From Candidatus Poribacteria bacterium (lineage in GTDB: Bacteria > Poribacteria > WGA-4E > PCPOR2b): a DNA stretch of 64,000 nt. This document shows positions 8,219 through 29,126 of the stretch, in pieces; position 1 is the stretch's first letter; every line of letters starts with the position of its first letter. Below the pieces are notes generated by a model, which did not search any database, had not been told where the DNA came from, and worked only from the letters and a program-made list of their open reading frames with translations. The stretch covers positions 736,001 to 800,000 of the forward strand of contig OZ220744.1 in assembly GCA_965116925.1 (NCBI GenBank), read 5' to 3'. Position numbers and translations under genes: made by a program.

Positions 8219-8905
8219 GTGCGATCCTCCGAACGAAGGGAATAACGTGAAACGTGATGCCCCGATAAATCCCCGATACATCGGGACAGGCGGGACAGGC
8301 TGTGAAACGTGAAAACAATTTGTTCATTGGTTTCAGGATCTACGCAAATTTAGTACGCGGCGCGCGATTCTCTTGCTATTAACCCCCTAAACCCCTAACC
8401 CCCCTAGCCCCCCTTATCAGGGGGGAATTGTTCGTCTGGCTTATCGGGGGGAAACCTCTGTCAGGGGGACTTATGAGCTCGATCAGTTTCTGTTGCACGA
8501 TTGCTTAACATGAACCAAGCACACAAAACCGCAGCTCTCCTGTTCAATCTACTTCTAGTCCGAAGGTCTCAATGTGAAATTTATAGTAGATTTTAGAATT
8601 ATAGTGGACCTTAGAATAAATGAGACACTCTAAACCGGCGCAGTTGGAAACAGCGCCTACCAAACATGGGGGCGAAAGTGTCTATTTATTTTTAGAATTC
8701 ACTATCAATAAGACATTCCAAATCGGCGCAGTTGGAAACAGCGCCTACCAAACATGGGGGCGAAAGTGTCTATTTATTTTTAGAATTCACTATAATTCTC
8801 CCGTAGCTTCGATCTCCCGGTCAAGGCTACGGCGGGGAAACCCGATGCCCCGCCTACGGATTCGGGTCATTCCGATTTTGGTATTCAACAGACATAGCAC
8901 TCCTC

Positions 8906-9022
8906 ATGAAAATTAAAAAAATAATTCGGTAATTTGCTAGCGACGCCGGCGCGGTTTTCAACCGCGCCTACCGTATGTTTCGAGGAAAATAGGGATTACC
9001 GATTTAAATACTTAAACTTCAT
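8906..9022. mobile_element. 117-bp hairpin-apex element, copy 1
   Basis: Ends ATGAAAAT...AACTTCAT; near-identical copies at 14856-14972 and 28933-29049; splits hairpin GCACTCC-TCT-GGAGTGC. Confidence 0.8.
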
Positions 9023-9054
9023 CTGGAGTGCTGGTTTTGGGACATACCATCTTC

Positions 9055-9435
9055 TATAGACATATCGCTCCTTCGGAGCGAAAGCCGAATCTTATACCCA
9101 ACGGGCGAGGTGACCTCGCCCCTACGATTACAAATATGCCTCACATAACTGTCAACACGCCCTAGACGCTTATACCTTCAAATGCCCTTCATAGATATAT
9201 CGCTCCTCCAGAGCGAAAGCCGAATCCTATACCCAACGGGCGAGGTGACCTCGCCCCTACGATTACAGACATGCCTCACATAACTGTCAACACGCCCTAG
9301 ACGCTTATACCTTCAAATGCCCTTCATAGATATATCGCTCCTCCAGAGCGAAAGCCGAATCCTATACCCAACGGGCGAGGTGACCTCGCCCCTACGATTA
9401 CAAACATGCCTCATATAACTGTCAACAGAACCTAG
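9055..9435. repeat. Tandem repeat, about 2.8 x 135 bp
   Basis: CGCTCC at 9066, 9201, 9336; each unit has two hairpins and the end TGTCAACA(CGC/GAA)CCTAG. Confidence 0.9.
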
Positions 9436-9458
9436 GTGCATAGACTTTCAAGCGTCCT

Positions 9459-10526
9459 TCATGGTAGTTGAGGGATAACCTCTTTTGCCATCAGCTCCAT
9501 GGATCGGCGCATCTTCGCCTTGTCGTCCCAATCGTGACCAATCATGAGTACTGTGCCGAAACCGCCGGTCAGGTCGTAGAGGTCTTGCAGCTTTCGTGTG
9601 ACGGTGTCGACGCTGCCGACGATGGCGATGTTGTCGATGATATATTCGGCGTTGATTGCTTCGTCAGGCATCTCCGGCTCCCATTTCAGCAGATCCTGCA
9701 TCCGGGCAAGCGTGAGCATCCCGCGCAGGTAGATAAGTGAGGCGGCAAATGCACCGCTCAACGCGTGTTCCCGTGCTTCTGCATCCGATTCTGCGACGAA
9801 GATGCTGCGGGAGATACGCCATTCTGAACGGTCAGGTTCGCGTCCGGCTTCGAGGGCTCCTTGGGAGTAGAGTTCCCACTGCCGTTTCACCTTGTGCGGC
9901 GGTGCCATGTTGATGCTGATTGGAATGAATCCCCGCTGCCCGCCGGTTGTAGCAGCCATAGACTCTTCCCTGACGATACTCATCGCGATTGGTGGGTGCG
10001 GTTTCTGATACGGTTGCAGCACCTGACCGAGTCCAAGTTCGGGAATCTTTTCGTCGAGTTTGAGGTTCCAGTAATCTCCCTTGAATTCAAAGGGGCCATC
10101 CTCTTGCCAGAGTTTGAGGACGATGTCCATTGCCTCAAGGGTCATCAGTCCCTGCGTCCGTGGATCGGGTAGGTCGAACAGTGCCCAATCGGTTGGGACA
10201 CCGCCCTGCCCAAAACCGACGTTGAGTCTGCCTTTAGCGAGGTGATCGAGATAGGCAAGTCTGACGGCGACGTTGGCGGGGTGGTGTTGGGTGATGATAG
10301 TCACGCCGGTGCCCAAGCGAATGTTTTTCGTCTGGGGCAGCATGTGGGCGATGAAGACATCGTTGGAGGGAATCGGCTCCCACCCTGCGGTATGGTGCTG
10401 CCCAATCCACGCTTCACTAAATCCCAGTTGGTCTGCCCAAATGACACATTCTACGTCCTCTTCAAATGTCTGTGTCCGATCCTTTTCCGGCGGATGCAGC
10501 GGCATCATAAATGTTCCGACTTTCAT
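9459..10526 (-). CDS. LLM class flavin-dependent oxidoreductase
   Basis: GFSEAWIGQHH, IRLGTGV, HPANVA...LDHLAKGRLNVGFG, PYQKPHPPI. Confidence 0.92.
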   Translation of the reverse strand: MKVGTFMMPLHPPEKDRTQTFEEDVECVIWADQLGFSEAWIGQHHTAGWEPIPSNDVFIAHMLPQTKNIRLGTGVTIITQHHPANVAVRLAYLDHLAKGRLNVGFGQGGVPTDWALFDLPDPRTQGLMTLEAMDIVLKLWQEDGPFEFKGDYWNLKLDEKIPELGLGQVLQPYQKPHPPIAMSIVREESMAATTGGQRGFIPISINMAPPHKVKRQWELYSQGALEAGREPDRSEWRISRSIFVAESDAEAREHALSGAFAASLIYLRGMLTLARMQDLLKWEPEMPDEAINAEYIIDNIAIVGSVDTVTRKLQDLYDLTGGFGTVLMIGHDWDDKAKMRRSMELMAKEVIPQLP

Positions 10527-10923
10527 AAATTCACCTCATATCATTCAAGTCTTTTTTTTGAAATATCAAGAGAATTGCTCGACTGACGCGTGAAACGTAA
10601 AGCGTAATGAGTAATACTTAAAAAAATGAAGCATTATGTATTATTGCTTTGAATGAACTAATGAACCAACTGTGTAAGTTCTAAGTTGGTTCATTCATTC
10701 TTCTTACGTTTCCCCCTTCGGATACACATGTCGCCTCTCTGGGGCTTTGGGTATGGCGCGGGTTACGGCATACGGAGTATGCCTATTACTATTCTATAGA
10801 CATGTCGCCCCTCTGGGGCTAAATGAACCAATGGTTTTCCCATATCACATTACCAACAGTTGCAAACTCGCAAAGGTTTTAGGACTTACGCATGTGTAAC
10901 TCCTAGGTTTATTATCTCGGCGG

Positions 10924-11808
10924 TTACGTGCGAATCTCTACGCCCCCCCGTTCTTCCTGAAGCCGCGCTACCGAGACCGATGCAAGCTGTCCCCAACCTC
11001 GGTTTCGTGCTTCGGTGAAACGCTGTTCGATGATGTTGGCGAGTTCCATCGGCAGGCGTAGTTGACGGGCCAGTTCGGTTGCCAGACCGACATCTTTCGC
11101 ACCCAAGTCTAGCTGAAACCCCGGCTCAAAATTGCCTTGAAATAGACTTGCGGGAAATTCCTGCATACACTCGGTATTGCCGGAGCTGTGAGAGATCGCT
11201 TCAAACATGGTTTCTGTTTGGGCACCGGCTTTGAGTCCCAGCGTCAGTGCTTCTGATACCAGAACGTAGTTGCCAAGATTGATGAGGTTATTGACAATTT
11301 TGCAGACGGCTCCCATGCCCTGCTCGCCGCAGTACATGACTTTTTCCCCGATGAGGTCGAGGACGGGTTTGTAAGACGTATAAACCGACTCATCGCCTCC
11401 GACCATGATACACAGTGTTGCCTGCTCGGCACCGGTGACACCGCCGCTGACTGGAGCGTCTAGCACATGGACGCCTTTGGGTTTTGCGGCAGCAGCTATG
11501 CGATGGATGGTATCTGGATCGGTGGTGCTCAGGTCAAAATATGCCAAGCCGGGTGCAGCACCGCTGAGGATACCGGAATCTCCTAGGGCGACCGCTTCCA
11601 CATCTTGGGGACGGGGCAGTGCTGTGAAGACGACTTGACTCGCCACCGCTACGGCCCCTGGGCTATCCGCCCATAATGCGCCCTGTGACAGCAACTCTTC
11701 GGCTGCTTCCCTGTGTGTATCAAATATCGTTAGGGTGTGACCGCCTTTGGCAAGGTTTCGTGCCATGAAGCGTCCCATACGCCCAATACCGATGAACCCG
11801 ATATTCAT
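10924..11808 (-). CDS. 3-hydroxyisobutyrate dehydrogenase family NAD(P)-dependent oxidoreductase
   Basis: MNIGFIGIGRMG, LDAPVSGG, KIVNN, AKDVGLA; ATG 11808 overlaps the upstream stop (ATGA). Confidence 0.9.
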   Translation of the reverse strand: MNIGFIGIGRMGRFMARNLAKGGHTLTIFDTHREAAEELLSQGALWADSPGAVAVASQVVFTALPRPQDVEAVALGDSGILSGAAPGLAYFDLSTTDPDTIHRIAAAAKPKGVHVLDAPVSGGVTGAEQATLCIMVGGDESVYTSYKPVLDLIGEKVMYCGEQGMGAVCKIVNNLINLGNYVLVSEALTLGLKAGAQTETMFEAISHSSGNTECMQEFPASLFQGNFEPGFQLDLGAKDVGLATELARQLRLPMELANIIEQRFTEARNRGWGQLASVSVARLQEERGGVEIRT

Positions 11809-12713
11809 ACCTGAGCCTCCGAGTATCGGCGCAGCCCGCTCGGTAATCCCTCTTGGTCGGACGCCGGTGGTTTGACGGGGGCTTCGCAGGGCCAGCATTG
11901 ACCGCCGGTGTGTTGATAATCTTCGCCGGCTAACCAACTGAACATTTCAGCCGCGGCGATGCCACATTTGAACTGCTCAAAGTGAGGCTCGCCGCCGAAG
12001 GTGGGCCAAGAGAAGTCGAAATCGGGGTCAATGATCCAGTCACGACGCGGTTCGGTTGTCCGCCAGTAGTTATACTTGAACAGGTTGCGGAAGCCGTTGA
12101 TGGTGCTTCTGCCCTTGCGGTGCCATATTGAGTAAACGGTGATGAAGATAGAGCCTGCGGGTGCGGTGGTTGGTACGGAGAGTTTCACACTGCGTAGGTG
12201 CGCCATGTAGTTGGCTTTGGTACGAAGAAAGTGGGAGCCGGGGATTACTTCGGTGGGGCCCGCCTCCTTCGGCGTGTCCTGTGGGTAATAGAACACTTGC
12301 AGGTAGTCTAAGCGTGGGGTGTAGATTGATCCGCCGTCACGATGCCACCCTTGGGGCGGTGCTGGACATGAGGCGCGGTGATTGCACAGTGTCTGGGGCA
12401 GCTTGAAGTCTTTGCCGAGCAACGATCTGACAGCACCCGCCGCTTGTGGATTTTTGAACACGCCGTCAACAAACCAGTCTTCGGTCAGGAGTTCGAGGGG
12501 TTGATGCTCCGGGTGTTCGTCCACGAAGTCCATCATACGGTGATTGACCACGTCTTCGACCACACCTTCAAGCAGCAGATACCCTTTACGGCAAAATTCA
12601 AATACCTCTTGATCGTTCAGCGTGGGTTCACAGTCGTAGGTGCTTCCTATTGTCGTCTCGCTGTGTGGGATTCTGATTTGTTCAACCGGGGAGGATGTCG
12701 TCGGATTCATCAA
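11805..12713 (-). CDS. PhyH (phytanoyl-CoA dioxygenase) family Fe(II)/2OG dioxygenase
   Basis: GWHRDG, YYPQD...GPTEVIPGSH, IWHR facial-triad residues. Confidence 0.85.
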   Translation of the reverse strand: MMNPTTSSPVEQIRIPHSETTIGSTYDCEPTLNDQEVFEFCRKGYLLLEGVVEDVVNHRMMDFVDEHPEHQPLELLTEDWFVDGVFKNPQAAGAVRSLLGKDFKLPQTLCNHRASCPAPPQGWHRDGGSIYTPRLDYLQVFYYPQDTPKEAGPTEVIPGSHFLRTKANYMAHLRSVKLSVPTTAPAGSIFITVYSIWHRKGRSTINGFRNLFKYNYWRTTEPRRDWIIDPDFDFSWPTFGGEPHFEQFKCGIAAAEMFSWLAGEDYQHTGGQCWPCEAPVKPPASDQEGLPSGLRRYSEAQV

Positions 12714-12767
12714 AAAGCTCCTTCTTTGCGGAACGCAGATCTGCGTTCCCTACAAATGGTCACGGTT

Positions 12768-13139
12768 TCAGGTTAATTTTTCGAGGATAAATTCGCATCC
12801 GAGGCCAAAGGTTTTGTCTTCTTGGAGCAGCAGCGCCATTTCCGGGAACTTGATTATCCGCCAACCGTCGTTCATCGCTTCGAGTACGGAGTTGTAGGGC
12901 CATTCGTCCACATCGTCGGGTGCTTCGAGGATTTCACCGTTCTCTACCAGTGCCATGCCGAGGACTTGGGAATCGACACCGGTGTTGCCGGTGTTCAGAT
13001 ACAGCAGTCGCTGCTGCTTGGGTGAGTCGTCGTCCGGAGCCTTGTCGAGACAGTCTAATGCCTGTTGAAGATCTGCTTCTACTAGTGTGCCGGCGCGTAG
13101 CTTGTCTAGCCAACCTTGGATCTGTTGTTTGTCAGGCAT
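12768..13139 (-). CDS. Hypothetical protein, 123 aa
   Basis: Co-oriented first gene of the 13139-10924 unit; WPYNSVLEAMNDGWRIIKFP segment. Confidence 0.7.
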   Translation of the reverse strand: MPDKQQIQGWLDKLRAGTLVEADLQQALDCLDKAPDDDSPKQQRLLYLNTGNTGVDSQVLGMALVENGEILEAPDDVDEWPYNSVLEAMNDGWRIIKFPEMALLLQEDKTFGLGCEFILEKLT

Positions 13140-13195
13140 CCTGGACTTCCTCTATCTGGTGTTTTTCTATATTTATCATGAACCCATTTGCTGCG

Positions 13196-13945
13196 ACACA
13201 CATGTCGCCCCGCTGGGGCTTTGGTTATTAGTATAGATCGGGTTTCTATAAACATGTCGCCCCGCTGGGGCTATCGGTCGGGCAAGATGCCCGACCTACG
13301 GGTATGGGGACAGTCGGGCGAGATGCCCGACCTACGGGTGTGGTGCGGGTTACGGCATACGGAGTATGCCTACTACTAGCAATTTGCGTTGAAATAAGTT
13401 TCATCTGTTGGTTTGCAACTTGGGATCACAATCTAACAGATTGTGGTACAAAAAACTATCTACTTTTAATGTCTGCTTATTTTTAGAATTCACTATAAAC
13501 ACATGTCGCCCCGCTGGGGCTTTGGTTATTAGTATAGATCGGGTTTCTATAAACATATCGCCCCGCTGGGGCTATCGGTCGGGCAAGATGCCCGACCTAC
13601 GGGTATGGGGACAGTCGGGCGAGATGCCCGACCTACGGGTGTGGTGCGGGTTACAGCATACGGAGTATGCCTACTACTAGCAATTTGCGTTGAAATAAGT
13701 TTCATCTGTTGGTTTGCAACTTGGGATCACAATCTAACAGATTGTGGTACAAAAAACTATCTACTTTTAATGTCTGCTTATTTTTAGAATTCACTATAAA
13801 CACATGTCGCCCCGCTGGGGCTTTGGTTATTAGTATAGATCGCGTTTCTATAAACATGTCGCCCCGCTGGGGCTATGGGTCGGGCAAGATGCCCGACCTA
13901 CGGGTGTGGTGCGGGTTACGGCATACGGAGTATGCCTACTACTAG
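13196..13945. repeat. Tandem repeat, about 2.4 x 301 bp, built of REP-like hairpins
   Basis: CATGTCGCCCCGCTGGGGCTTTGG at 13201, 13502, 13803; units nearly identical. Confidence 0.92.
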
Positions 13946-13948
13946 CAG

Positions 13949-14701
13949 TTACGCGCGTCCGACATAGGGCATCTTTGTCGCCATGACGGTTATGAATAGT
14001 ACGTTTGCCTCTAAGGGTAGGCTTGCCATGAACACGACAGCACCTGCAATATCGTCCGTGTCCATCCGTGGCTCGACCATGAGCGTTCCATTCGGTTGGA
14101 GGCTGCCGGTATCGCTTCTCTGTTCGGCGTCGATCGATGCATTGCCGATGTCAATTTGTCCACACGCAATATCGTATTTACGTCCGTCAAGGGAGGTCGA
14201 TTTTGTTAGCCCGGTCAGCGCGTGTTTGGTGGAAGCGTAGGGTGCGGAGTTGACGCGCGGCACGTGTGCTGATACGGAACCGTTATTTATGATGCGCCCG
14301 CCTCTGGGGTCTTGATCCTTCATAATCTTGAACGCTTCTTGCGTACACAGGAATGAGCCGGTTAGGTTGGTGTCCACGACCGTTTTCCACTGCTCGTAGG
14401 TCAGGTCTTCTAGGTTGACGCCCGGCGCACCGACTCCTGCGTTATTAAAGAGTAGGTCGAGCCTGCCAAAGGTCTCTTTGGTTTTGGCGAATAGGGCTTT
14501 GATGGAGTCGTGATCTGTTACATCTGTGGGGACAATCAATGTTCGCGAACTCGCTTCTCCCGCTTGATTGACCGTATCCTCTAGTGCTTCCGGGCGTCGC
14601 CCAGCTAGTGTAACGGAATACCCTTCATTTAGCAGTGCAAGCACCGTTCGCTGACCGATGTTGGAACCGGCACCTGTAACGATAGCAACTTTTGTACTCA
14701 T
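13949..14701 (-). CDS. SDR family oxidoreductase
   Basis: [12 protein letters not shown], catalytic YASTK. Confidence 0.93.
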
Positions 14702-14855
14702 ATGTTATATCTCCTCATTTTATTCTATGGATTGGATATTGTTTCGAGACGATGAAACGTGAAGCGTAAAACGTGAAAGCTCTTTGTTCATTGGTACATT
14801 GGTTCATTATCGTGGATCTTGGAATTAATGAGACACTCCAAACCGGTACGGTTAG

Positions 14856-14972
14856 ATGAAGATAAAAAAACAGTTCGGTAATTTGCTAGCGACGCCGGCG
14901 CGGTTGAAAACCGCGCCTACCGTATGTTTGGAGGAAAATAGGGATTACCGATTTAAATACTTACAATCTCAT
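14856..14972. mobile_element. 117-bp hairpin-apex element, copy 2, nested in a TATAGTG-type MITE
   Basis: Splits GGTACGGTT-AGA-AACCGCACC; the intact hairpin is visible near 19339. Confidence 0.8.
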
Positions 14973-16015
14973 GAAACCGCACCTACCGGGGGCGAAAGTG
15001 TCTATTTATTTTTGGTGTTCACCATAAGTTTTTAGCACGGACCGGCGGGGAAACCAGATGCCCCGCCTACGATTTTATAGAGTAAATCCGGGCGGGGTGC
15101 AACAGAAACCGAGTTTTCGAGAAAAAACTCGGTTTCTCCTGAAAATAACGGATTTCCCCTGCCCTGATAAATCGAGACCAGGGTACATTCTAATCTATTG
15201 GAACCGACCCCTCCGTTTCGATGGCCCATCAACACGATTCGGCAATTTGGCAGGGCACTGGCAGGTCCAAAAAAAAATTTAACCTCACATCGGAGGGGTC
15301 ATCATTAGCCGATGTCTCTCTGAACCCTGATGGGGCCTAGCTTCAGCGCATTTGTAGATTTGTACCACGCAAGAGAAGGGGCGTCCAGACGGCTTTTTGA
15401 CCTGCCAAATACGCACTGTTTATGAACCGTTTTTCACTGAAATAGCACCATAACCAAGCCAAATGGCAGGATTTGGCAGGGCACTGACAGGTGAAAAAAC
15501 TATTTTACGCTCTATAAACATGTCGCCCCTCTGGGGCTAAATGAACCAACACACCTTTTCCCGTCCCGATTTGATTGAGGCTCCCAAGAATCGGGATTTT
15601 CACGCATCATGTATTGTGTTTCTATCATAGCACCGGAGGGAGAGTAGGTCAAGTGAAAATTCATAGTGCCACAGAAACCAAGTTTTCCAAAAAAAACTCG
15701 GTTTCTCTTCCCGTTTTGCACTTTCTTTTTATATGAGGGGTGTGCATGTGTAGCCATCTTAGTAGATTAACCCTATTGCTGTGCATACACATTGCGCTCC
15801 GCTGGAGCGCAGGCATTGACTTTATCGCCTTCTATAGACATATCGCTCCGCTGGAGCGAAGGTTTCTGTCGAATCACCGGGACTTCTGTGTATTCAACTT
15901 GTTGAAGGAACGTAAGTCCGGTAGCAGCTTTGTTTGCTTATCAATGTTTTCTGGGTAATCAGCTGACTCCGTGATTCAAACAATAATGATGCACCCCCCT
16001 CTTTTTATATGAATC

Positions 16016-16829: not shown

Positions 16830-17162
16830 AGTGTAATACCCTCCTTTTGCCCAATTATATCATATTGTTATGCAAGATGCAACGACGTGATATGGTCGTT
16901 ATGGTCATTTATGGTAGATTTTAGAATTAATTGAAGGGTGTTCATAATTATATTGTCTGAATCGCGGATTAGGAAGATGACACAGATTACACGGATTATT
17001 GCCTCGATGAATCCCCGGCCGGGACAGGCGGAACGGAATAGGCGGGATTCAGGGCGATCTGAATCGGGATTTTCAGGATCTGTGTCCCTCCTAAACCGTG
17101 CGTGTGACTTTTACTCCGCACGACTTTCATAGTCATAAATTGATGGTGTCGTTTAATGATTA

Positions 17163-19301: not shown

Positions 19302-19403
19302 TATAGTGGATCTTAGAATTAATGAGACACGCCAAACCGGTGCGGTTAGAAACCGCACCTACCGGGGGACGAAAGTGTCTATTTATTTTTAGAATTCACC
19401 ATA
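19302..19403. mobile_element. TATAGTG-ended MITE carrying a GTAG hairpin
   Basis: Ends TATAGTGGATCTTAGAATT / TTTTAGAATTCACCATA; other copies near 8600, 14808, 20130, 33828, 44765, 55137, 61697. Confidence 0.8.
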
Positions 19404-19731: not shown

Positions 19732-19741
19732 AAGCGAAATT

Positions 19742-19770
19742 ACTGTATCACGCCCCCTACACGGCGTCAA
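19742..19770 (-). promoter_or_regulatory. Putative sigma70 promoter for the CMD-SDR genes
   Basis: Minus strand TTGACG-N17-TACAGT. Confidence 0.5.
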
Positions 19771-20302: not shown

Positions 20303-21361
20303 ATGAAGACCTACCGAGTGGCGATTGTGGGGCTGGGGCGTATGGGCAGTACACTTGATCAATCAATTGCGTCGGCGTCCCATGTGAGTGAAAGGCTTGA
20401 AGTGGTGGCAGGAGCGGAAACGATTCCGGAACGGCGGACGGCATTCCAAGAGAAATGGGGCGTAGAAACGGTTTATGAAGACTATCAAGAGATGATTGAG
20501 AAGGAGCAGCCGGATCTGGTGGGGGTGTGTACCACGGCAACAGGTTTGCCCAAACCGGGCAATCGTGCGCCATCGACCGCTTTTCGGGACGACGCACATG
20601 CGGATATGGCGGTTTATGCAGCGAACGCCGGTGTGCCGATGCTGTTCGTGGAGAAGGCGATATCCTGTTCTGTGGAGAAGGCTGATGAAGTCCTCGAAGC
20701 CTGTCGCAAACATAGCACCGCGTTCAACACCGGTGTATTAAGGCGTTTTAGCGGGCGGTACAAGCGGATACGGGAGATGATTGCGCGAGGGGATATCGGT
20801 GAACCGCAATCGGCGGTGGTCTATGGAGCTGCCAGCCTGATGCACGTGCACATCCACTGGATGGATACCCTTTCCTACCTGCTCGGCGATCCAGAGATTG
20901 CAGCAGTACGCGGGGATCTGTTGCCCAGAAGTATCGAGGTTAAGGACAATCGGCTGGAGGAAGATCCGCAGGGACTTTTTCAGCTTGTTTTCGCCAACGG
21001 AATTGAAGCGTGGTCGGTGCCGGATGGGGGGCGAGAGTATGAGATCGTCGGGACGGAAGGCACCCTCCGATCGATGTGGGATGGTGCAGCGGTGACTTTC
21101 CGGAAGCTGAATGGCGCCGATGATTGGCCCCTACAATGGGAAGGGGAGGCATTTCCAGAGGAGACTCCGGTCAGCACGGTTGTTTCTTTGCTAGAGGACT
21201 TGGTAAACTCGCATGAATCGGGAAAGCCGTCAATTGGCAATATTGAGGTCACTCATCCAATCACAGAGGCGTGCATCACTGTAGCGGAGAGCCATCGGCA
21301 GGGTGGTCGGTGGATTGATTTACCGATGCAGAATCGGGATTTGTATGTGTTTCATGTTTAG
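20303..21361 (+). CDS. Gfo/Idh/MocA family oxidoreductase
   Basis: AIVGLGRMG, LFVEKAI; start ATG 20303 behind AGGAGG. Confidence 0.88.
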   Translation: MKTYRVAIVGLGRMGSTLDQSIASASHVSERLEVVAGAETIPERRTAFQEKWGVETVYEDYQEMIEKEQPDLVGVCTTATGLPKPGNRAPSTAFRDDAHADMAVYAANAGVPMLFVEKAISCSVEKADEVLEACRKHSTAFNTGVLRRFSGRYKRIREMIARGDIGEPQSAVVYGAASLMHVHIHWMDTLSYLLGDPEIAAVRGDLLPRSIEVKDNRLEEDPQGLFQLVFANGIEAWSVPDGGREYEIVGTEGTLRSMWDGAAVTFRKLNGADDWPLQWEGEAFPEETPVSTVVSLLEDLVNSHESGKPSIGNIEVTHPITEACITVAESHRQGGRWIDLPMQNRDLYVFHV

Positions 21362-21364
21362 CTA

Positions 21365-21854
21365 GGGCGTGTTGACATTTTGATGCTGCTTATTCGGCAA
21401 ACGCTGTAAGCAGCAGGCAATTTGCCAAATGTAGCGCGAACTGTTAGTTTGCAAGCGGGGATCACAATCTAACAGATCGTGGTACAAAAGTAGATTGTAG
21501 GTCGAGATTCATATCTCAACAGAATACATAGCGTGGCGTGCAACAATCCGGGTTGATTGAGCCCAAACTATCGCGCGATATTCTCAGTGGTGTCGATTTT
21601 GGAAAATTGACCTACAGAAATCCGAAGCTATCTCTGATGTGTGAACAAAGGGTTGGGAGACCCAACCCCTACGAAGGGCTGTGAATAAAGGGTTGGGAGA
21701 CCCAACCCCTACGAAGGGCTGTGAATAAAGGGTTGGGAGACCCAACCCCTACGAAGGGCTGTGAACAAAGGGTTGGGAGACTCAACCCCTACGAAGGGCT
21801 ATGTGTCTGTGTGCCTTCTTGATTATCTGATTGCGATGAAATGTCAACAGAACC
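21365..21854. mobile_element. 490-bp MITE, IS5-like shell, TA-flanked
   Basis: GGGCGTGTTGACATTT...AAATGTCAACAGAACC with TA on both sides. Confidence 0.8.
21641..21800. repeat. 4 x 40-bp tandem of a GTAG hairpin unit
   Basis: GTGAA(C/T)AAAGGGTTGGGAGAC(C/T)CAACCCCTACGAAGGGCT at 21641, 21681, 21721, 21761; no spacers. Confidence 0.95.
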
Positions 21855-22007
21855 TAATAACCTTTGGTGCTAATTTAGTGAGAAAGTCGTTTCCACATAG
21901 TTCAAGCTGAAAATCCCGATTTATCGGGGAATCACGTTTCAAGCTATCAACAGCTGCAAGCTAGCACCATTGGTTAATATGGATGAACCTCTCGATGCTG
22001 AGGAACG

Positions 22008-23666
22008 ATGAATCGGAGCGACAACATGGCTTACCGTGACATACTAGAACAAATTCGACTTGCTTTCCCCCAACCGGTATCCGACGCAATCCATGATTCG
22101 TACTTCGTGCATTCGATTATGCGCGCCTTGGATCAGGTTGATGACTTGAAAACACATCTGCCGATGCTTGGTGAGATTGTCGCTGGTGACTTCGAGAAGG
22201 CTAGGCAAACGACGTTACCGGATACGATGACTTCGATTGAGGATGTTACGGCTGACCTTGTGAGTTACCTCCGAGGGATGACCCTGTTTGGGCATCCCCG
22301 GACGCAACAGAACGTTATTCCGCCGCCGACAATTCCAAGTGTGATAGGGGTACTCCTTGCGTCTCTGTATAATCCAAATCTGGTTTGGGATGAATACAGT
22401 CGCTTGGTGGCGTTGGCTGAAGTTGAAGCGGTCGCCATGGCGTCGCAATTGATTGGATACGATCCGGAACAGGCGAGCGGTGTGTTTACTTTTGGGGGCA
22501 CCGCAACGACGCTCTACGGTGTGAAGTTGGGTCTTGAAAAGGCTTGTCCGGGAACGATGCAGAACGGTACACCTGAAGACGCTGTCGTGTTTGTATCAGA
22601 TGCGGGTCACTACTGTGCTGCTAACATTGTCGGTTGGCTCGGAATAGGAACGAACAACCTGATTACGATTCCGACGACAGTCGAGAACGAAATGGATCTC
22701 GTGCAACTTGAGGAAGAAGCACGGACAGCATTAGAGAATGGAAAAAAGATTGCCGCCATCATTGCGACGTTGGGCACTACCGACGCGTTCGGTTTGGACG
22801 ATTTAGTACACATTGTGGCGTTACGAGACACGCTCGTTGATGACTTCCAACTTGACTATCAGCCACACATTCACACGGATGCAGCTATTGGGTGGGCTTG
22901 GTCTGTTTTCAACGACTACGATTTTGAGAATAACCCTCTCGGTTTTCGCCCGCGTACCGTCCGTGCCTTGGCAGGTGCCTCCCGGCGCATACGGCATTTA
23001 TCCCTAGCAGATTCGGTTGGCATTGACTTTCACAAAACCGGTTTTACACCTTATATCTCCAGCCTCGTCCTCTTTAAGAACCGAGCGGACTTGGAACTGG
23101 TGAAACGTCAACCGGAGCAGATGCCGTATCTCTACCAATTTGGGGAACATCGCCCTGGAATGTATACGCTTGAAACCTCTAGAGCCGGGACAGGTCCCCT
23201 TGCTGCACTCGCCAATTTTCGATTGTTCGGTGAGCAGGGGTTACGAGTCATCCTCGGACACATCGTTGAAATGACACAACTCCTGCGGGAACATCTGGAA
23301 GGGCACGAAGGTACAACCGTGCTGAACCGAGAAAATTTTGGAACTGTCACACTCTTCCGCGCCTATCCCGTCGGTGTGGATACCTTCTCAATCAAGGGGC
23401 ATGAATTTGAGGATGCCGCCTATCGCGATAGTTTGCTCGCACATAACGACTACAACCGAGAGATCTCTCAATACGTACATTCGGAGGCGATGGAGGGCAG
23501 AGGGGTTGTGATTTCTATTACAGACTGCTATCGTCGAACCCAATACGGCGAGCCGATTGTAGCCTTAAAATCTTTCATCTTATCCCCGTTTGTTGATGAA
23601 GCCGATGTCGAAATGGTCGTTTCAAAGGTCTTGGAGGCTAGGGGAAAGGTGAGTGGTTCGTGTTAA
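22008..23666 (+). CDS. Group II PLP-dependent amino acid decarboxylase
   Basis: FTFGGT, GHYC, ATLGTTDAFG, HTDAAIG, PLP lysine in DFHKTG. Confidence 0.88.
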   Translation: MNRSDNMAYRDILEQIRLAFPQPVSDAIHDSYFVHSIMRALDQVDDLKTHLPMLGEIVAGDFEKARQTTLPDTMTSIEDVTADLVSYLRGMTLFGHPRTQQNVIPPPTIPSVIGVLLASLYNPNLVWDEYSRLVALAEVEAVAMASQLIGYDPEQASGVFTFGGTATTLYGVKLGLEKACPGTMQNGTPEDAVVFVSDAGHYCAANIVGWLGIGTNNLITIPTTVENEMDLVQLEEEARTALENGKKIAAIIATLGTTDAFGLDDLVHIVALRDTLVDDFQLDYQPHIHTDAAIGWAWSVFNDYDFENNPLGFRPRTVRALAGASRRIRHLSLADSVGIDFHKTGFTPYISSLVLFKNRADLELVKRQPEQMPYLYQFGEHRPGMYTLETSRAGTGPLAALANFRLFGEQGLRVILGHIVEMTQLLREHLEGHEGTTVLNRENFGTVTLFRAYPVGVDTFSIKGHEFEDAAYRDSLLAHNDYNREISQYVHSEAMEGRGVVISITDCYRRTQYGEPIVALKSFILSPFVDEADVEMVVSKVLEARGKVSGSC

Positions 23667-23686
23667 AAGAAAAGGAGGGACATCCC

Positions 23687-24928
23687 ATGGGTGAGCGTTT
23701 GGCTATTAATGGTGGAACCCCGGTGCGTACGCAGCCGTTTGGACCGTCTCACGATTTTGGTGATGAAGATATCGCAGCACTCGCCGAAGTTATTCGTTCA
23801 GGCAACATCGGTAAGGGACCGCAGGTTGCCCAATTTGAGCGTGAGTTTGCTGCCAAACATGGCGTCAAACATGCCATCTCAGTCACTTCCGGTACGGCGG
23901 CGATGCACGTCTGCATTGGAGCGATCAATCCCGACCCCGGCGACGAGATTATCGTTTCGCCTTGGACCGCTGGCGGCAGCTTCATCGGTGCGCTGTTGCA
24001 CAACTGTGTTCCCGTATTCGCCGATATTGACGACACTTTTACCCTTGACCCGAAGGCCGTCGAGGCGAAGATCACGCCACGGACGCGGGCGATTATCGCG
24101 GTGCATCTGTTTGGCAACCCTTGCAACATGGATGCACTGCGGGAGATTGCACAACGGCACCAGCTTTTCTTGATTGAGGACTGTTGTCAGGCTCATTTTG
24201 CGGAATATCAAGGCAAGACCGTCGGCACGCTTGGCGATATCAACGGCTTTAGCTTTGGCGGAAAACACCTTTCGGCGGGCATGGGTGGTATGGTCTTGAC
24301 CAATGATGAGGGACTCTGGGAACGCGGTGTTCTCTTTGCTGATGCCGCGCTGCCTCGCGCCAACGGACCGTATGAAGGGCTGCCTTACGCGAACTATTTC
24401 CTAGCACCGAACTATAAGATTAACGACCTGATTGCGGCGGTGTTGCTCACACAACTCAAGAAGGTTGATGGCTATATTGCGAATAAGATCCGTGCTGCCC
24501 AGCAGATTATTGAGGGACTTGCTGACATTGAGGAGATTACGCCTCAGCAGGTTCGACCGGGTGACCGCCACACCTACTGGGTCCTGGGTTTTACGATTGA
24601 TACCAATCAACTCAACTGCTCCGCCGGGGAGTTCGCCGAAGCGGTAAGCAGAGAGGGAGTCCCGCTGTCGGGACCGTACATCGGATCCGGGAAGGAGGGT
24701 CCTCTTTACCGCAACCCGTTTCTCGCTGAACCGGACTGCTACGGTCGCACCCGCTTCCCATTCGACTATGAACGGGAAAAGCCGATTGACTACCGGCTTG
24801 CCGAATGTTCGTATGGCGAAGCCTTGATGTGCCGAGGTGTCAATCTCAGTATGCTCCCGAGCTTTACCGATGGGGACATTGCGGACATCGTCCGAGCAAT
24901 TCGCAAAGTAGCCCTCCATTATCGCTAG
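23687..24928 (+). CDS. DegT/DnrJ/EryC1/StrS family aminotransferase
   Basis: LAINGG, SGTAA, VHLFG, IEDCCQAH, FSFGGKHL; start ATG 23687 behind GGAGG. Confidence 0.92.
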   Translation: MGERLAINGGTPVRTQPFGPSHDFGDEDIAALAEVIRSGNIGKGPQVAQFEREFAAKHGVKHAISVTSGTAAMHVCIGAINPDPGDEIIVSPWTAGGSFIGALLHNCVPVFADIDDTFTLDPKAVEAKITPRTRAIIAVHLFGNPCNMDALREIAQRHQLFLIEDCCQAHFAEYQGKTVGTLGDINGFSFGGKHLSAGMGGMVLTNDEGLWERGVLFADAALPRANGPYEGLPYANYFLAPNYKINDLIAAVLLTQLKKVDGYIANKIRAAQQIIEGLADIEEITPQQVRPGDRHTYWVLGFTIDTNQLNCSAGEFAEAVSREGVPLSGPYIGSGKEGPLYRNPFLAEPDCYGRTRFPFDYEREKPIDYRLAECSYGEALMCRGVNLSMLPSFTDGDIADIVRAIRKVALHYR

Positions 24929-26073
24929 AACAAGCCCTCCGGCTCCAGACCTAAGAAAAACTGACCCGCTGTCTCATAGTGCGCCATCCGTCCCTGAATC
25001 TGCTGCGTGATAACATGTGCGTCTTGAAACCGGCGTTGAATCGGCTTATGCTCGAAAATGGAGTCAGAACCGCACACCTCATAGACAATATCAACTGCTG
25101 CCGCCGCCATGCGGATGGCGTGAGTTGCAGCCAGTCGTAATCGGATGCGTTCCTCAACCGTCAGGGCGTGAACCTTGCGGGCACTCTCCCACGCTGCGGT
25201 TGCGGCTTCAAGCAGAAATGCGCGCGCCGATCCCCAGATAGCCTCGGCTCTGCCGATTTCGCGTTGGACGATGGGTTTATCTCGCAATAGATTTTGATCA
25301 AAACGCGGACGCTTCCCGCCCGCCAACTCAACCGCGGCATCCAGCGCGGAACGGGCAACGCCGAGTGCCGTGCATGCAAACCCGGAAGCGAACAGCAGCA
25401 GCATCGGCATCACATACAGTGGTCCCTCCTCACGCGGAGAATCTGCCATATTGAAGGTGCGCTCGCTAGGGACGAAGACATCCTCGACCTCAAAGCTGAA
25501 AGTTCCAGTTCCCCGAAGTCCATTGACCTGCCAGACATCTACGAGAGTCACCTGTTCTTTCGGCATGATTAGCATCCGATCCTCCCTCTTGTCGGTCGAA
25601 GGATTTTTGACGGGAGCGGCTGCTGCCATCCAAGTCGCATGGCGGCAGCCGCTGCTAAAATTCCACCGGCCTGTGAGATGGTATCCCCCATTGACTGGAA
25701 CAGCAGAGGCGTTTGTTGGGGGACCGTTTGCGACCACCGCTCGCGGGGCATCCCAAATCTCTCGCGCTAACGGCTTAGGCATTTTTGCAGAGATGGTCGC
25801 AAACACATTATTTTGGTTGATGCACCAAGCGGTGCTACCGTCAACTTCAGCGAAGGTCTGAACGATGGAAAGATGCTCTAGATAGTCGATCTCTCCACCG
25901 CCAAGTGAGCGAGGTACGAGCAGGCGGAAGAAGCCCTTGTCCGCAAGTTCTGCAAAAAGTGCATCGGGTAGCTCCCGTTCGCGATCGATCTCGTCGGTGA
26001 GTGCTGCAACACGGGGCACGAGTTCACGTGCTGCGGTAAGATAGGAGGTGGGATTGTTTTGAGCGGATGCCAT
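24925..26073 (-). CDS. Acyl-CoA dehydrogenase-fold flavin-dependent monooxygenase (HsaA/DszC-like)
   Basis: VPRSLGG, GRWNFSSGCRHA, WQVNGLRGTGT, IQRRFQDAH. Confidence 0.88.
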   Translation of the reverse strand: MASAQNNPTSYLTAARELVPRVAALTDEIDRERELPDALFAELADKGFFRLLVPRSLGGGEIDYLEHLSIVQTFAEVDGSTAWCINQNNVFATISAKMPKPLAREIWDAPRAVVANGPPTNASAVPVNGGYHLTGRWNFSSGCRHATWMAAAAPVKNPSTDKREDRMLIMPKEQVTLVDVWQVNGLRGTGTFSFEVEDVFVPSERTFNMADSPREEGPLYVMPMLLLFASGFACTALGVARSALDAAVELAGGKRPRFDQNLLRDKPIVQREIGRAEAIWGSARAFLLEAATAAWESARKVHALTVEERIRLRLAATHAIRMAAAAVDIVYEVCGSDSIFEHKPIQRRFQDAHVITQQIQGRMAHYETAGQFFLGLEPEGLF

Positions 26074-26169
26074 TTTTTACCTTCACTTTCCGATTAGGGT
26101 TTTTACGGTCGATCTCAGGTCAGATTGTGCGCTATAGTATCACAGATTGGCGTAATGCTTCAACCCTTC

Positions 26170-26198
26170 TTGACAACAGACTTGCATGATGCTACACT
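26170..26198 (+). promoter_or_regulatory. Putative sigma70 promoter for the 26523 membrane gene
   Basis: TTGACA-N17-TACACT with TG at the extended -10 position. Confidence 0.65.
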
Positions 26199-26248
26199 CA
26201 TTCGGCAATGGGGATTATCGTGAATGTAGTAGAACACCAAAAATTGGT

Positions 26249-26384
26249 GGCTCATGTTAAGAAATCGTGCAACAGAAGCCGAATTTTCGTAGGGGTTGGG
26301 TCACCCAACCCCGATAAATCGGGGCGGGGCAACCCCGCCCCTACGATTTCGCTTCATATTTTGCACTTTCTTTTTATATGAGCG
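26249..26384. mobile_element. MITE, IS1595-like shell, with two GTAG hairpins
   Basis: GGCTCATG...ATGAGCG; flanks AAATTGGT / GAATTGGT (7 of 8 match). Confidence 0.78.
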
Positions 26385-26408
26385 GAATTGGTTTGAGGAC
26401 AATGGAGT

Positions 26409-26511
26409 CAGGACTTACGCAAATTTAGCACACAAGGGGTAGATTTTTGATTTTTAACCCCCTAAATCCCCCTTATCAGGGGGACTTACTGAACGTGCTG
26501 CGTGAGTCCTA
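26409..26511. mobile_element. MITE, AGGACTTACGCA shell
   Basis: CAGGACTTACGCA...TGCGTGAGTCCTA with GGAGT on both sides; cargo CCCCTAAATCCCCCTTATCAGGGGGACT. Confidence 0.75.
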
Positions 26512-26522
26512 GGAGTGCTTAA

Positions 26523-28460
26523 TTGCAAGAGACCTCTGAACGCAGAAAATATGAGGGCGCGACAGCGCGCGCAATACAGATTGGTCTGTTTTTAGTCGCC
26601 GCCAACGTCTATTGGGTGACACTTGTGGAGATGAAGTACCGTGCGGAGGCGACCGCCCTGCCGATATTCATCTATCCCATCTTTATTCTGTTCTGCCTTG
26701 TCGTTTTCAACAACTGCCTGTCAAAGGTGTGGCAGCGGATCCGTTTATCGCCTGGGGAGCTGCTTACCATCTATTCGATGCTTGTGATTTCGACTTCGAT
26801 TGCGTCGTATGGAATGTTGCAGGACCTGTTCGCCTTCTTCCTTCATCCGTACCAATTCGCCTCGCCCGAAAATGAGTGGAAGGAACTCTTTTTTCATTAT
26901 ATCCCGCCTTGGTTCACCGCCAACGCGCCTCATGACATACTCGCTGAGTACTACGAAGGCGATTCAACGCTTTACAAAGCAAAGCACCTTAACGCTTGGA
27001 TGAGACCCATATTGGTCTGGACAGTCTTCACGTTGGTGTTGCTATATATGCTTCACTGCATGAACACTCTCGTGCGTCGGCAGTGGGTGCAGACGGAACG
27101 ACTGGCGTTTCCGATCATCCAGCTGCCGGTAGCGATGGTGCAATCATCAAGCTTCCTTCGGAACGGTTTTCTATGGGTCGGTTTCGCTATCCCTGCTGTT
27201 CTTGATCTCATGAACGGGTTGCATGTTCTTTATCCCTCCGTGCCATATCTCCATCTCAAGTTGACCTCTATCAGCCAATATTTCTCCGAGAAACCGTGGA
27301 GTGCGGTAGCAGGTACGCGGCTCTCCTTTTATCCGTTCATGATCGGGCTCGGATTTTTCCTGCCGCTTGACCTCTCCTTTACCTGTTGGTTTTTCTATGT
27401 GCTGCGCCGGCTAATCAGTGTGGTGGTCACCTATTTGGGACTTACGCATCTCCCCGGTTTTCCATACTTTCATGAACAAGCTGGCGGTGGTTGGTTCTGC
27501 CTATTCTTTATTGCGGTATGGGCAACACGGAGGCATTTGGCTTTTGTATTTCGGACTGCGTTTTCTGTGACTTCATCGGTTGATGCGGATGAGCCGATGC
27601 GGTATCGAACGGCACTGATCGGGTTGGTGGGCGGATTTCTGTTCATGGCTATCTTCTCCGCTCAAGCTGGTATGTCAATGATTGCTATCCCCATCTTCTT
27701 TGCCCTCTATTTTGCCATCGCCATTGTTATCACCCGTTTACGGGCAGAATTTGGGGCACCTCACAGGATATCCAATAATCCGATGGACGTGATGGTGACC
27801 TGTTTCGGAACGCTGGCTTGGGGTGGGCGCAACCTGACTGTGATGAGTTTCTATCAGTGGTTTAACCGGAGCTATCGTTCACACGCAAATCCGAATCAGT
27901 TTGAACCGCTCAAGATGGCAGAGGTCGCTAATATCAACAGCCGCCGATTGGTTTGGGCGATGATGCTTGGATCTGCTGTCGCTCTTATTGTGGGGATGTG
28001 GACAAACCTGGACATGATGTATCGTGACGGGGCAATTGCACGGGTGTTGTTCTTCAAGATCTGGGTTGCCAATACAGCATTCCGACGTTTGGAAACATGG
28101 CTGTATCATCCGATGCCCGTCGATTCGCTGCGCATGGCGTTTATGGGAGGTGGGATGGTGCTGACCTTGATTTTGTTTGTCTTGCGAATGCGTTTCTTTT
28201 GGTGGCCTCTTCATCCTGCTGGTTATCCACTCGCCCTCAGTTCCTCAATCGATTACTTCTGGTTTACTTTTTTCATTAGCTGGGGGTTAAAAGCGGTTAT
28301 CCTGAAGTATGGCAAAGTTAGGGGGTATCAACGCGCCATTCCGTTCTTCTTCGGCTTGATTTTGGGGGATTTCATCACAGGTGGGCTCTGGATGGTGTAC
28401 GGTGTTTTGACCCAGCAGCAGGTCTATATGATCTACTTGAATGGGGGGACGTGGTATTGA
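26523..28460 (+). CDS. Multi-pass membrane protein, DUF6785/DUF6784 (OPT-like) putative transporter
   Basis: Many hydrophobic segments; ELLTIYSML, RRQWVQTERLAFPI, RFFWWPLHPAGY, PFFFGLILGD. Confidence 0.7.
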   Translation: MQETSERRKYEGATARAIQIGLFLVAANVYWVTLVEMKYRAEATALPIFIYPIFILFCLVVFNNCLSKVWQRIRLSPGELLTIYSMLVISTSIASYGMLQDLFAFFLHPYQFASPENEWKELFFHYIPPWFTANAPHDILAEYYEGDSTLYKAKHLNAWMRPILVWTVFTLVLLYMLHCMNTLVRRQWVQTERLAFPIIQLPVAMVQSSSFLRNGFLWVGFAIPAVLDLMNGLHVLYPSVPYLHLKLTSISQYFSEKPWSAVAGTRLSFYPFMIGLGFFLPLDLSFTCWFFYVLRRLISVVVTYLGLTHLPGFPYFHEQAGGGWFCLFFIAVWATRRHLAFVFRTAFSVTSSVDADEPMRYRTALIGLVGGFLFMAIFSAQAGMSMIAIPIFFALYFAIAIVITRLRAEFGAPHRISNNPMDVMVTCFGTLAWGGRNLTVMSFYQWFNRSYRSHANPNQFEPLKMAEVANINSRRLVWAMMLGSAVALIVGMWTNLDMMYRDGAIARVLFFKIWVANTAFRRLETWLYHPMPVDSLRMAFMGGGMVLTLILFVLRMRFFWWPLHPAGYPLALSSSIDYFWFTFFISWGLKAVILKYGKVRGYQRAIPFFFGLILGDFITGGLWMVYGVLTQQQVYMIYLNGGTWY

Positions 28461-28629
28461 AAAAATGCGAGCTGTCACCTCCCATCCGAATCTGGTTTTA
28501 TGGAACGTGAAACGTGAAAATTATTTGTTCATTAGTTCATTGAACTGTGCCCCGTAGACATATTGTCCGGTTAGGGTTCTGGGGGATAGCTTGAGTTAAA
28601 CTATATCGACTGTGTTAAACATTATGCAA

Positions 28630-28814
28630 TAGGACTTACGCAGTTGCACGCTCCCCCGCCCTGTTTGGAGAGTCTTAGACTTGCGGTTGGGCGATTTATC
28701 GTTACAGGACACCGTTGCCAACGCCCGATAAATTGGGCAACTCCAGCAGAGACACCCTCAAGGAGTTCGTAGGGAACGCAGATCTGCGTTCCCTACGGAA
28801 GTGCGTAACTCCTA
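28630..28814. mobile_element. 185-bp MITE, TAGGACTTACGCA shell
   Basis: TAGGACTTACGCA...TGCGTAACTCCTA with exact 6-bp duplication ATGCAA; contains the perfect palindrome 28769-28796. Confidence 0.85.
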
Positions 28815-28838
28815 ATGCAATAGAAACCGAGTTTTTGG

Positions 28839-29049
28839 CTGAAGATTAAAAAAACAGTTCGGTAATTTGTTATCGACACCAGCGCGGTTGAAAACCGCGC
28901 CTACCGGGTTGGAGTGAATACGGTGCGGTTGGATGAAAATAAAAAAAACAGTTCGGTAATTTGCTAGCGACGCCGGCGCGGTTTTCAACCGCGCCTACCG
29001 TATGTTTCGAGGAAAATAGGGATTACCGATTTAAATACTTAAACTTCAT
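28839..29049. mobile_element. Composite of hairpin-apex elements (partial copy plus full 117-bp copy 28933-29049)
   Basis: The whole block splits AGAAACCGAGTTTTT-GGC-AAAAACTTGGTTATCT; the inner copy follows the half hairpin GGTGCGGTT-GG. Confidence 0.75.
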
Positions 29050-29126
29050 GCAAAAACTTGGTTATCTTCGTCCCTTGTAATTTCTTTTTACATGAACCCA
29101 CAATTATAAAAAAAGAAGGTGTTTTT

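Follow-up and report, generated by a model that had tools for sequence, protein, structure and literature searches.

The stretch of DNA considered here is a 64,000-nucleotide segment of the genome of a Candidatus Poribacteria bacterium, a sponge symbiont whose 6.47 Mb genome (6,471,377 positions, 49% G+C) is assembled as a single contig (GCA_965116925.1, OZ220744.1; C1 below). This whole segment, C1:736001-800000, is referred to as the window, and positions without a prefix are counted from its first letter. It carries three copies, all intergenic and all on the plus strand, of a 117-bp element which we call MITE-A, for miniature inverted-repeat transposable element. An earlier reading of the window made without database searches, referred to here as the sequence-only reading, had placed these copies at 8906-9022, 14856-14972 and 28933-29049 and had claimed that they sit on the central loop base of unrelated hairpins, with duplication of that single base; the coordinates and the flanks are confirmed here. 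We propose that MITE-A and its relatives are moved by an IS630-type transposase that targets the apex of palindromes.

The first copy (8906..9022) lies between two open reading frames (ORFs) of the minus strand, 6455-8281 and 9459-10526. Its ends are ATGAAAAT...AACTTCAT, and inside it is a GTAG-tagged hairpin of the repetitive extragenic palindrome (REP) type, GGCGCGGTT-TTC-AACCGCGCC. To its left, positions 8896..8905 comprise the arm AGCACTCC of the target hairpin (stem 8) and the loop bases T and C, the C at 8905 being the first copy of the duplicated base; to its right, positions 9023..9032 comprise the second copy of the C (9023), a loop T and the arm GGAGTGCT. The junction reads GCACTCC-TC|CT-GGAGTGC, with two unpaired bases per side and the same base adjoining the element on both. 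Uninterrupted hairpins of the GCACTCC/CGCTCC type have 3-nt loops, TCT, AGA, GCT or AGC. Three tandem units of ~140 bp, each made up of a CGCTCC-type hairpin and a GGGCGAGG-TGA-CCTCGCCC REP, directly follow copy 1 (9023-9500), which occupies the first, diverged hairpin of the array.

The second copy (14856..14972), whose right end, ...CAATCTCAT, is more diverged, splits a REP hairpin that itself lies inside a TA-type MITE (CTATAGTG-ended family). Its left flank (14845..14855) consists of the arm GGTACGGTT and the loop bases A and G, and its right flank (14973..14983) of G, A and the arm AACCGCACC, giving the junction GGTACGGTT-AG|GA-AACCGCACC with the duplicated G at 14855 and 14973. An intact form of this target had been reported near 19339, and an uninterrupted paralogue with the 3-nt loop of an empty site is indeed present at 19339..19359, where it reads GGTGCGGTT-AGA-AACCGCACC. 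The TA-type MITE that hosts copy 2, with TATAGTG...GAATTCAC ends and a GTAG-tagged REP, has about ten copies in the window, among them those at 8591-8794, 14799-15052, 19293-19429, 33819-33934, 44756-44871, 56471-56667 and 61688-61829.

The third copy (28933..29049) has chimeric flanks: on the left a REP half hairpin, GGTGCGGTT-GG, and on the right the right half of another hairpin. It has invaded the left arm of a REP belonging to an older, same-family remnant on the plus strand (28839..28932), which begins with the left end CTGAAGATTAAAAAAACAG... and continues with GGTTGGAGTGAATAC and that arm. The remnant is 85% identical to MITE-A positions 2-68 (match at genome 764840-764906), and its right part was probably lost via recombination between two right ends. 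The whole block 28839-29049 is enclosed by an outer hairpin that is not a REP, formed by 28825..28838 (arm AACCGAGTTTTT and loop G, G) and 29050..29063 (G, loop C and arm AAAAACTTGGTT). Here the junction is AACCGAGTTTTT-GG|GC-AAAAACTTGGTT, with the duplicated G at 28838 and 29050, and there is one G-T wobble between the arms as we read them from the letters. Both the outer hairpin around the block and the position of copy 3 behind a half hairpin ending in GG had been described before, correctly.

A BLAST search of the genome with the three window copies as queries returned 76 full-length copies of MITE-A and, among the weaker matches, a 115-bp sister element, MITE-B, with ends ATGAAGATTAATTTATT...AAAACCCAT that are related to those of MITE-A. 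Mean pairwise identity is 91% among the MITE-A copies and 95% among the MITE-B copies. Both ends are intact in 99 elements, comprising 74 MITE-A, 23 MITE-B and two long copies of 1,241 bp. We defined a strict apex site as one with perfect arms of at least 5 bp and exactly two unpaired bases on each side of the element, and 82/99 elements occupy such a site, with an identical junction base on both sides in 69/82. By type, strict sites (with the number having an identical base in brackets) were found for 59/74 MITE-A (48), 21/23 MITE-B (20) and 2/2 long copies (1). Centres of 3-nt loops with a stem of at least 5 bp make up 8054/6,471,377 genome positions (0.12%), and the chance of 82/99 strict apex sites is P ~1e-220 by the binomial distribution.

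The sequence-only reading had suggested a whole-assembly search followed by in-silico excision and folding as a check, and the outcome supports it. With DNA folding parameters, the junction base is the apex of a symmetric hairpin in 93/99 cases and the loop is of 3 nt in 90, while a test requiring both a 3-nt loop and a folding free energy (dG) of -4 kcal/mol or lower is passed by 87/99 elements compared with 4/5000 random sites. The stem 6-mers adjoining the loop at the 69 strict sites with an identical base are of 15 different kinds, in agreement with the earlier claim that the target is set by hairpin or palindrome geometry with no shared sequence. Because many of the copies in the commonest hairpin may descend from host repeats that were already occupied, we take these 15 stems as a safe lower bound on the number of independent events in this genome. 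The 17/99 elements that do not fit, window copy 3 among them, are mostly chimeric (with the arms of two hairpins), or have a mutated arm or a neighbouring inserted MITE. Unmatched loop halves or chimeric flanks are seen at window 28839-29049, at genome positions 3156734, 4018040, 4640041 and 5938266, and at others; this suggests that copies often recombine with one another, rearranging or deleting the DNA that separates them.

The state of the sites before insertion can be judged from uninterrupted relatives of the target hairpins elsewhere in the genome. Their loops are of 3 nt in 119/126 hairpins of the GGTGCGGTT...AACCGCACC type, in 36/36 of the CACAATCT family and in 141/144 of the CGCTCC family, and the middle base of the paralogue loop is the base that is found duplicated: AAC and GTT loops correspond to AA|AC and GT|TT junctions, ACA to AC|CA, and TCT, AGA and GCT to TC|CT, AG|GA and GC|CT. 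The REP hairpin of MITE-A itself is sometimes a target, and four nested cases were examined. In two of these the host is an intact 117-bp element, split in one case by a 1,241-bp element and in the other by MITE-A, and its halves of 53 and 65 nt add up to 118 nt, one more than 117; of the remaining hosts, one is internally deleted (53+52) and one has no right end. Together with the identical junction bases, the paralogue loops and the 118-nt hosts bear out the single-base duplication at the loop apex that had been claimed. Other placings of the boundaries, which would make the duplication AT or 3 bp long or would imply blunt cutting of a 4-nt loop, were rejected on the 3-nt loops of the paralogues, and also on the 118-nt nested hosts and on a sister insertion sequence (IS) with ATG...CAT ends. 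As this sister, which has ATGAAC...GTTCAT termini, is flanked by TA|TA, the ATG...CAT has to be counted as part of the element.

It could be argued that the hairpin arms are not targets at all, and are instead the outer parts of longer inverted repeats belonging to the element. The flanking inverted repeats do resemble longer terminal inverted repeats (TIRs), and an unanchored TIR finder extended into the arms. However, this explanation is refuted by the uninterrupted paralogues and we give it a negligible probability, as at least 15 unrelated arm pairs surround one and the same 117-bp core, other repeats contain numerous uninterrupted examples of each pair, closed by a 3-nt loop, and the DNA beyond the arms is specific to the host repeat and not inverted.

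A long copy with the same ends enclosing an ORF had been named as a thing to look for, and two were found, at C1:4122211-4123451 and 1430426-1431666. They are 1,241 bp long and 98.6% identical, have TIRs of ~28 bp, ATGAAGATTAA...TTCGGTAAT, the same ends as the MITEs, and have each inserted into a MITE-A at its inner hairpin. One forms part of a triple nest at C1:4122090-4123560, in which the IS lies in a MITE-A, the MITE-A in the inner hairpin of a MITE-B and the MITE-B in a CGCTCC-TCT-GGAGCG hairpin, with the apex rule obeyed at each junction. The sole gene of the long copies encodes a 384-amino acid DDE transposase of the IS630/Tc1-mariner type. It matches the NCBIfam IS630 model NF033545 over residues 32-368 with 161.1 bits, against a cut-off of 100, the only other NCBIfam match being a sub-threshold one to IS481. 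Pfam identifies DDE_3 (PF13358, 1.3e-19) together with the helix-turn-helix (HTH) domains HTH_32, HTH_29, HTH_28 and HTH_23. The catalytic triad is D191, D273 and E334, and in an alignment of 34 sequences both D residues are invariant and the E is conserved in at least 90%. A PDB sequence search with the transposase gave no relevant match; the top Foldseek matches of an AlphaFold2 model (pLDDT, the predicted local distance difference test score, 88.7) are the Mos1 mariner complexes 3HOS and 5HOO (E ~2e-8) and the Sleeping Beauty core 5CR4.

IS630-family elements are ~1.0-1.4 kb long, and a 1,241-bp element with TIRs and a single ORF fits that layout. The family is also known for insertion at TA with a 2-bp TA duplication, and for a spacing of ~34-36 residues between the second D and the E of the triad. 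Here the flanks lack TA and one loop-centre base is duplicated, and the spacing is 61 residues. As the TA hallmark is missing, we file the IS as a divergent IS630-related subgroup and not as a canonical member. The ATG..TTAA..GGTAAT end design is common to the MITEs and the IS, and the 117-bp and 115-bp elements are short, non-coding and multi-copy, with TIRs that match those of the IS and a target duplication (1 bp), as MITEs are. Judged by sequence, the 117-bp element is a MITE, a deletion-type non-coding derivative of the 1,241-bp IS.

The sequence-only reading had inferred an integrase acting in trans. A non-autonomous element served in trans agrees with what we find, while the enzyme appears to be a DDE transposase of the IS630 family (NF033545, 161 bits) and not an integrase, because the only gene of the long copies with the same ends belongs to that family. 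A structure-specific integrase or recombinase encoded elsewhere, whether of the tyrosine, serine, IS110 or RAYT type, might still be invoked for an element that has a GTAG-tagged REP inside it, the more so as IS110 elements are known REP hunters (PMC1525189). We regard this as very improbable: the 28-bp TIRs have exactly the design seen in an IS that encodes nothing but the IS630 DDE transposase, the 1,241-bp type of IS obeys the apex rule in many genomes, and HUH and IS110 elements are described as having no such repeats and making no duplication (PMC3333891; PMC1525189). Consistent with this, only a DDE_3 protein is encoded, and both TIRs and a duplication are present, which sets the IS apart from IS110 (bridge-RNA) and from IS200/IS605/RAYT (HUH) elements; nor does it belong with IS1182/IS1272, as the protein has no IS1182-family NCBIfam match and there is a 1-bp duplication.

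What the transposase may recognise can be approached by comparing the palindromes that are used with those that are available. A 3-nt spacer is found in 1244/4712 perfect genomic palindromes with spacers of 0-7 and in ~90/99 insertion sites. The pair that closes the loop is T-A at 48 sites, C-G at 19, A-T at 2 and G-C at 0, against 427, 366, 238 and 452 available, respectively (Fisher P 2e-15); counted per distinct stem, the 5' base is a pyrimidine in 13/15 (P = 0.002). The earlier reading had described the three target hairpins as sharing no sequence; this holds for the stems, which are unrelated, but there is a sequence component that it had not seen, since hairpins closed by G-C are never used. 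Four abundant G-closed REP families are hit in 0/340 cases although their stability (-9.5 to -11.4 kcal/mol) equals that of used families, and hairpin stability was accordingly rejected as the cause of target choice. A G-closed REP type that is never hit, GGGTTGGG-AGA-CCCAACCC, is present in the window at 21640-21799, where it forms, with CTACG, four tandem units of 40 bp. A further comparison is provided by the GGCGCAGTT-NNN-AACAGCGCC family, whose loop-proximal GTT-NNN-AAC is that of the favourite target, and in which the fourth pair is an A·A mismatch. This imperfect-stem family has 1 hit against 139 empty hairpins and the perfect-stem family 34 used against 125 empty. Taken together, what defines a target appears to be dyad symmetry together with at least ~5 bp of unbroken stem, a spacer of 3 nt and a closing pair with a pyrimidine on the 5' side and a purine on the 3' side (Y:R), and REP hairpins would be the commonest victims because they are the commonest palindromes of the required type.

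One possibility is that the same IS630-type enzyme, with the same chemistry, acts on a B-form duplex, a symmetric dimer picking the palindrome centre by shape or deformability and by a Y-N-x-N-R core, with no extrusion of the arms. For a 1-bp duplication both strands have to be cut around a single base pair, as would come naturally to a duplex; with Mos1, the duplex target is bent by 147 degrees and its central bases are unpaired (PMC5481204); the Y:R closing pair is a component of sequence; and a TA-using sister IS targets a short sequence palindrome, CCTAGG. However, a protein could not sense the complementarity of arms in B-DNA without reading them, and there are at least 15 unrelated arms here and more elsewhere. 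Moreover, Y-NNN-R fits about 1/4 of all positions, yet 83% of the elements lie in perfect palindromes, and a family with the GTT-NNN-AAC core unchanged is hardly used at all (1 against 139 empty) once the fourth pair is mismatched. We therefore consider a B-form target unlikely.

The stability of the target hairpins as single strands (mean dG -8.4 kcal/mol, compared with -1.8 at random sites) raises another possibility, that the hairpin is met in single-stranded DNA, on the lagging-strand template or in a transcription bubble, which is how IS200/IS605 elements find their sites. MITE-A copies also occur along the chromosome in local runs of one orientation, and relative to the REP tag their orientation is 38 against 7, with 31 unclassified, a bias that may have arisen as occupied host repeats were copied. 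Neither an origin nor a terminus stands out clearly in the cumulative GC skew, which leaves a strand-bias test without a reference, and MITE-B copies in CGCTCC hairpins are found in both orientations, 5 against 4 (read from printed flanks). More directly, a DDE transposase joins two 3' ends to opposite strands, and both are required for a direct duplication of 1 bp. Single strands of the imperfect-stem family also fold well, at -7.1 kcal/mol, similar to the -6.3 of the well-used CACAATCT family, yet this family is almost never used. A single-stranded target thus seems improbable.

We hypothesise that the IS630-type transposase moves the IS and both MITEs in trans onto the middle base of a 3-nt palindrome spacer, with duplication of 1 bp, and we put the probability of this at roughly 0.8. 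In this proposal the transposase would bind the shared ends and thereby mobilise the IS, the 117-bp MITE and the 115-bp MITE by cut-and-paste chemistry. The two 3' ends of the transposon would be joined to opposite strands so as to flank the one central base pair of the spacer, each at the phosphate lying 5' of the central nucleotide in its strand, which amounts to a 1-nt stagger made by a transposase dimer; repair of this stagger would leave the central base duplicated. We infer that the transposase reads the palindrome in the form of a hairpin tip or cruciform, or with its centre already opened, because a Y:R pair is all the sequence that the sites share, the spacer is of 3 nt and the loop-proximal stem is perfect. 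Recognition of structure, which the sequence-only reading had proposed in the form of a cruciform or single-stranded hairpin, would be favoured by the unrelated stems, the strict 3-nt spacer, the avoidance of imperfect stems and the lack of shared sequence beyond the Y:R pair. The step to a looped-out centre is plausible, as Mos1 already bends its target and unpairs central bases. As for the order of events, it may be speculated that the first strand transfer takes place at one extruded tip and that the nicked cruciform is then re-absorbed, which would bring the second site within reach.

The apex rule extends to other genomes. Relatives of MITE-A were found in 27/41 related genomes searched, and of eight MITE copies fetched from other genomes 5/8 fit strictly, on other stems. 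The IS itself is distributed over 40/176 Poribacteria genomes and 6/31 genera. In one other Poribacteria genome 10/10 full IS copies lie on the middle base of 3-nt loops, on five stems (judged by eye from printed flanks). Twenty-six IS loci in other genomes were examined, of which 21 are single-site loci with both ends located, and at 13/21 of these the fit is strict, among them loci of a clade whose protein is only 57% identical; five further loci lie at a palindrome centre, but with another spacing or one base missing. Sequence comparison shows the anatomy of the elements and the family of the transposase, where the insertions fall and that they duplicate 1 bp, which targets are preferred, and that the rule is conserved across the IS clade. 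Homologues with more than 60% identity are numerous in metagenomes and nearly all of 384 amino acids, and annotated plasmid copies of IS630 are only 26-28% identical to the transposase.

Within the same phylum there is a sister IS, 36-39% identical, that uses TA in the canonical IS630 manner: with its ATGAAC...GTTCAT termini it is flanked by TA|TA within C(C)TAG(G) at 5/5 sites. From the second D to the E the spacing amounts to 61 residues in the apex IS and 36 in this sister, owing to an insert of ~25-28 residues without counterpart in the latter, and we suggest this insert as a candidate determinant of the target rule. Environmental relatives on metagenome contigs (loci L066-L145) have conserved ATGAAC...GTTCAT ends and a long second D-to-E spacing (58-73) in 49/49 measurable loci, with 10 others unmeasurable, and perfect palindromic arms of 5-20 bp abut the ATGAA termini in 17/49 loci evaluated. 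Their junctions have the form T-N|IS|N-A, in which the bases adjoining the ends are nearly independent of each other, G|A being the commonest combination and TA|TA occurring sometimes; among the loci examined there were no informative uninterrupted copies from which their duplication rule could be derived. A tentative extension, about which we are rather doubtful, is that the whole long-spacing clade of IS630/Tc1-mariner, with its extra ~25-35 residues, gave up the TA rule and integrates at palindrome dyads perceived as extruded tips or cruciforms, with a 1-bp duplication in 3-nt loops and none or TA in even ones, and that its reach extends beyond sponge symbionts.

Several observations weigh against the proposal that the transposase targets apices with a 1-bp duplication. 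The bases on the two sides differ at 13/82 apex sites, and several elements have flanks from two hairpins; recombination between copies, or mutation, may account for both. The AG|GA sites (6 in the main hairpin) are equally compatible with blunt insertion into 4-nt AGGA/TCCT loops, of which the genome holds seven; ACCA-type loops are absent from it. Excision footprints, expected as 6-nt N-x-AT-x-N loops from cleavage of the IS630 type, are not seen in the target hairpin families, so that cut-and-paste remains a presumption. Orthologous empty sites in related genomes, which the sequence-only reading had suggested looking for, were not found: when 20 relatives were searched with 1.4 kb around copy 1, the coding part alone was matched (82-90% identity), the intergenic DNA around copy 1 being unrelated between the species compared. 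Short-read contigs from 4 public runs (window 8500-28499) break at every repeat, and none spans a MITE site. As there is no orthologous empty site, the pre-insertion state rests on the paralogues and on the lengths of the nested MITEs. In addition, it is geometrically awkward for a compact transposase dimer to attack both tips of a cruciform at once, and the catalytic-domain insert is shared by the environmental relatives, in which the 17/49 palindrome-flanked copies are a minority. The seven hairpins with a 4-nt loop, GCGGTT-AGGA/TCCT-AACCGC (e.g. C1:1152217, 2427933 and 5872664), have the AGA loop with its middle base doubled, and could be scars of precise excision or natural variants.

In textbooks, the TA target and its 2-bp duplication are the invariant feature of the IS630/Tc1-mariner superfamily, and they underlie the Mos1/Sleeping Beauty model of DNA capture, with bending and flipping of adenine. 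Canonical IS630-family elements insert almost only at TA with a 2-bp duplication, as illustrated by ISY100, for which 34/39 in vitro products are reported to be of this kind (PMC2170065). The IS described here resembles IS630, ISY100 and Mos1 in being a single-gene element of ~1.2 kb with TIRs, an N-terminal HTH, DDE_3 and a Mos1-like model fold; unlike them, it uses no TA and inserts on the middle base of a 3-nt hairpin loop with a 1-bp duplication. MITEs derived from IS630 elements, of the Correia type, insert at TA. The Correia elements of Neisseria and RUP of Streptococcus are, like MITE-A, small non-coding TIR-bearing passengers of an IS630-type transposase (PMC2817692), and share with it, as do the TA-type MITEs of this genome, a multi-copy, intergenic nature and an inner hairpin. 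The TA-type MITEs differ from MITE-A in that the latter inserts at the apex with a 1-bp duplication, even into a REP carried by a TA-type MITE, as in window copy 2.

Other elements are known to hunt REPs. IS1397 reportedly inserts in the REP loop with a 3-4-bp duplication. IS1397 and ISKpn1 (IS3 family) and IS621, ISPpu9, ISPpu10 and ISPa11 (IS110 family) are specific for REP palindromes, a specificity set by the transposase, and among the five REP-hunting families listed in a survey (IS3, IS110, IS4, IS256 and IS5) IS630 does not appear (PMC1525189). Each of these hunters recognises one REP type by its sequence, in contrast to the many unrelated palindromes, some of them not REPs, that are used here. 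New insertions of IS1272, a DDE-type element of the IS1182 family, target stem-loop inverted repeats and not sequence (PMC5678879); this element differs in its transposase family and in its 'IR-replacing' mode without target duplication, whereas here there is a clean 1-bp duplication and both arms are kept. In the literature searched, which did not cover ISfinder and TnPedia, no IS630-type element is described as inserting at an apex or as duplicating 1 bp.

A natural lineage that lands on apices over unrelated stems would indicate that target choice in the DDE fold can be re-wired from sequence towards DNA geometry, and this lineage is accompanied by a matched TA-using sister differing by one insert in the catalytic domain. 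With a 384-amino acid protein, 28-bp ends and synthetic palindromes, it offers a tractable system for the sensing of DNA structure by DDE enzymes and for the extrusion of short palindromes in living cells. IS630 would also join the families known to hunt REPs, and part of the nested repeat mosaics in Poribacteria genomes would be explained. If the long-spacing clade does read structure, it would contain the first structure-reading cut-and-paste DDE transposase of the superfamily, as far as the literature searched goes, and would amount to a natural in vivo recorder of extruding palindromes and to an IS630-type selfish element that parasitises REP/RAYT repeats.

Two further kinds of repeat were noted in the window. 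A long region between 49200 and 56400 is made up of several blocks of 132-159-nt repeats, with a 57-nt core that occurs 35 times; it apparently codes on the minus strand and probably represents a set of genes for repeat-domain proteins. At 35446-35730 and 37153-37209 a GGT/GGC-rich repeat with a period of 12 nt has the form of a glycine-rich coding repeat.

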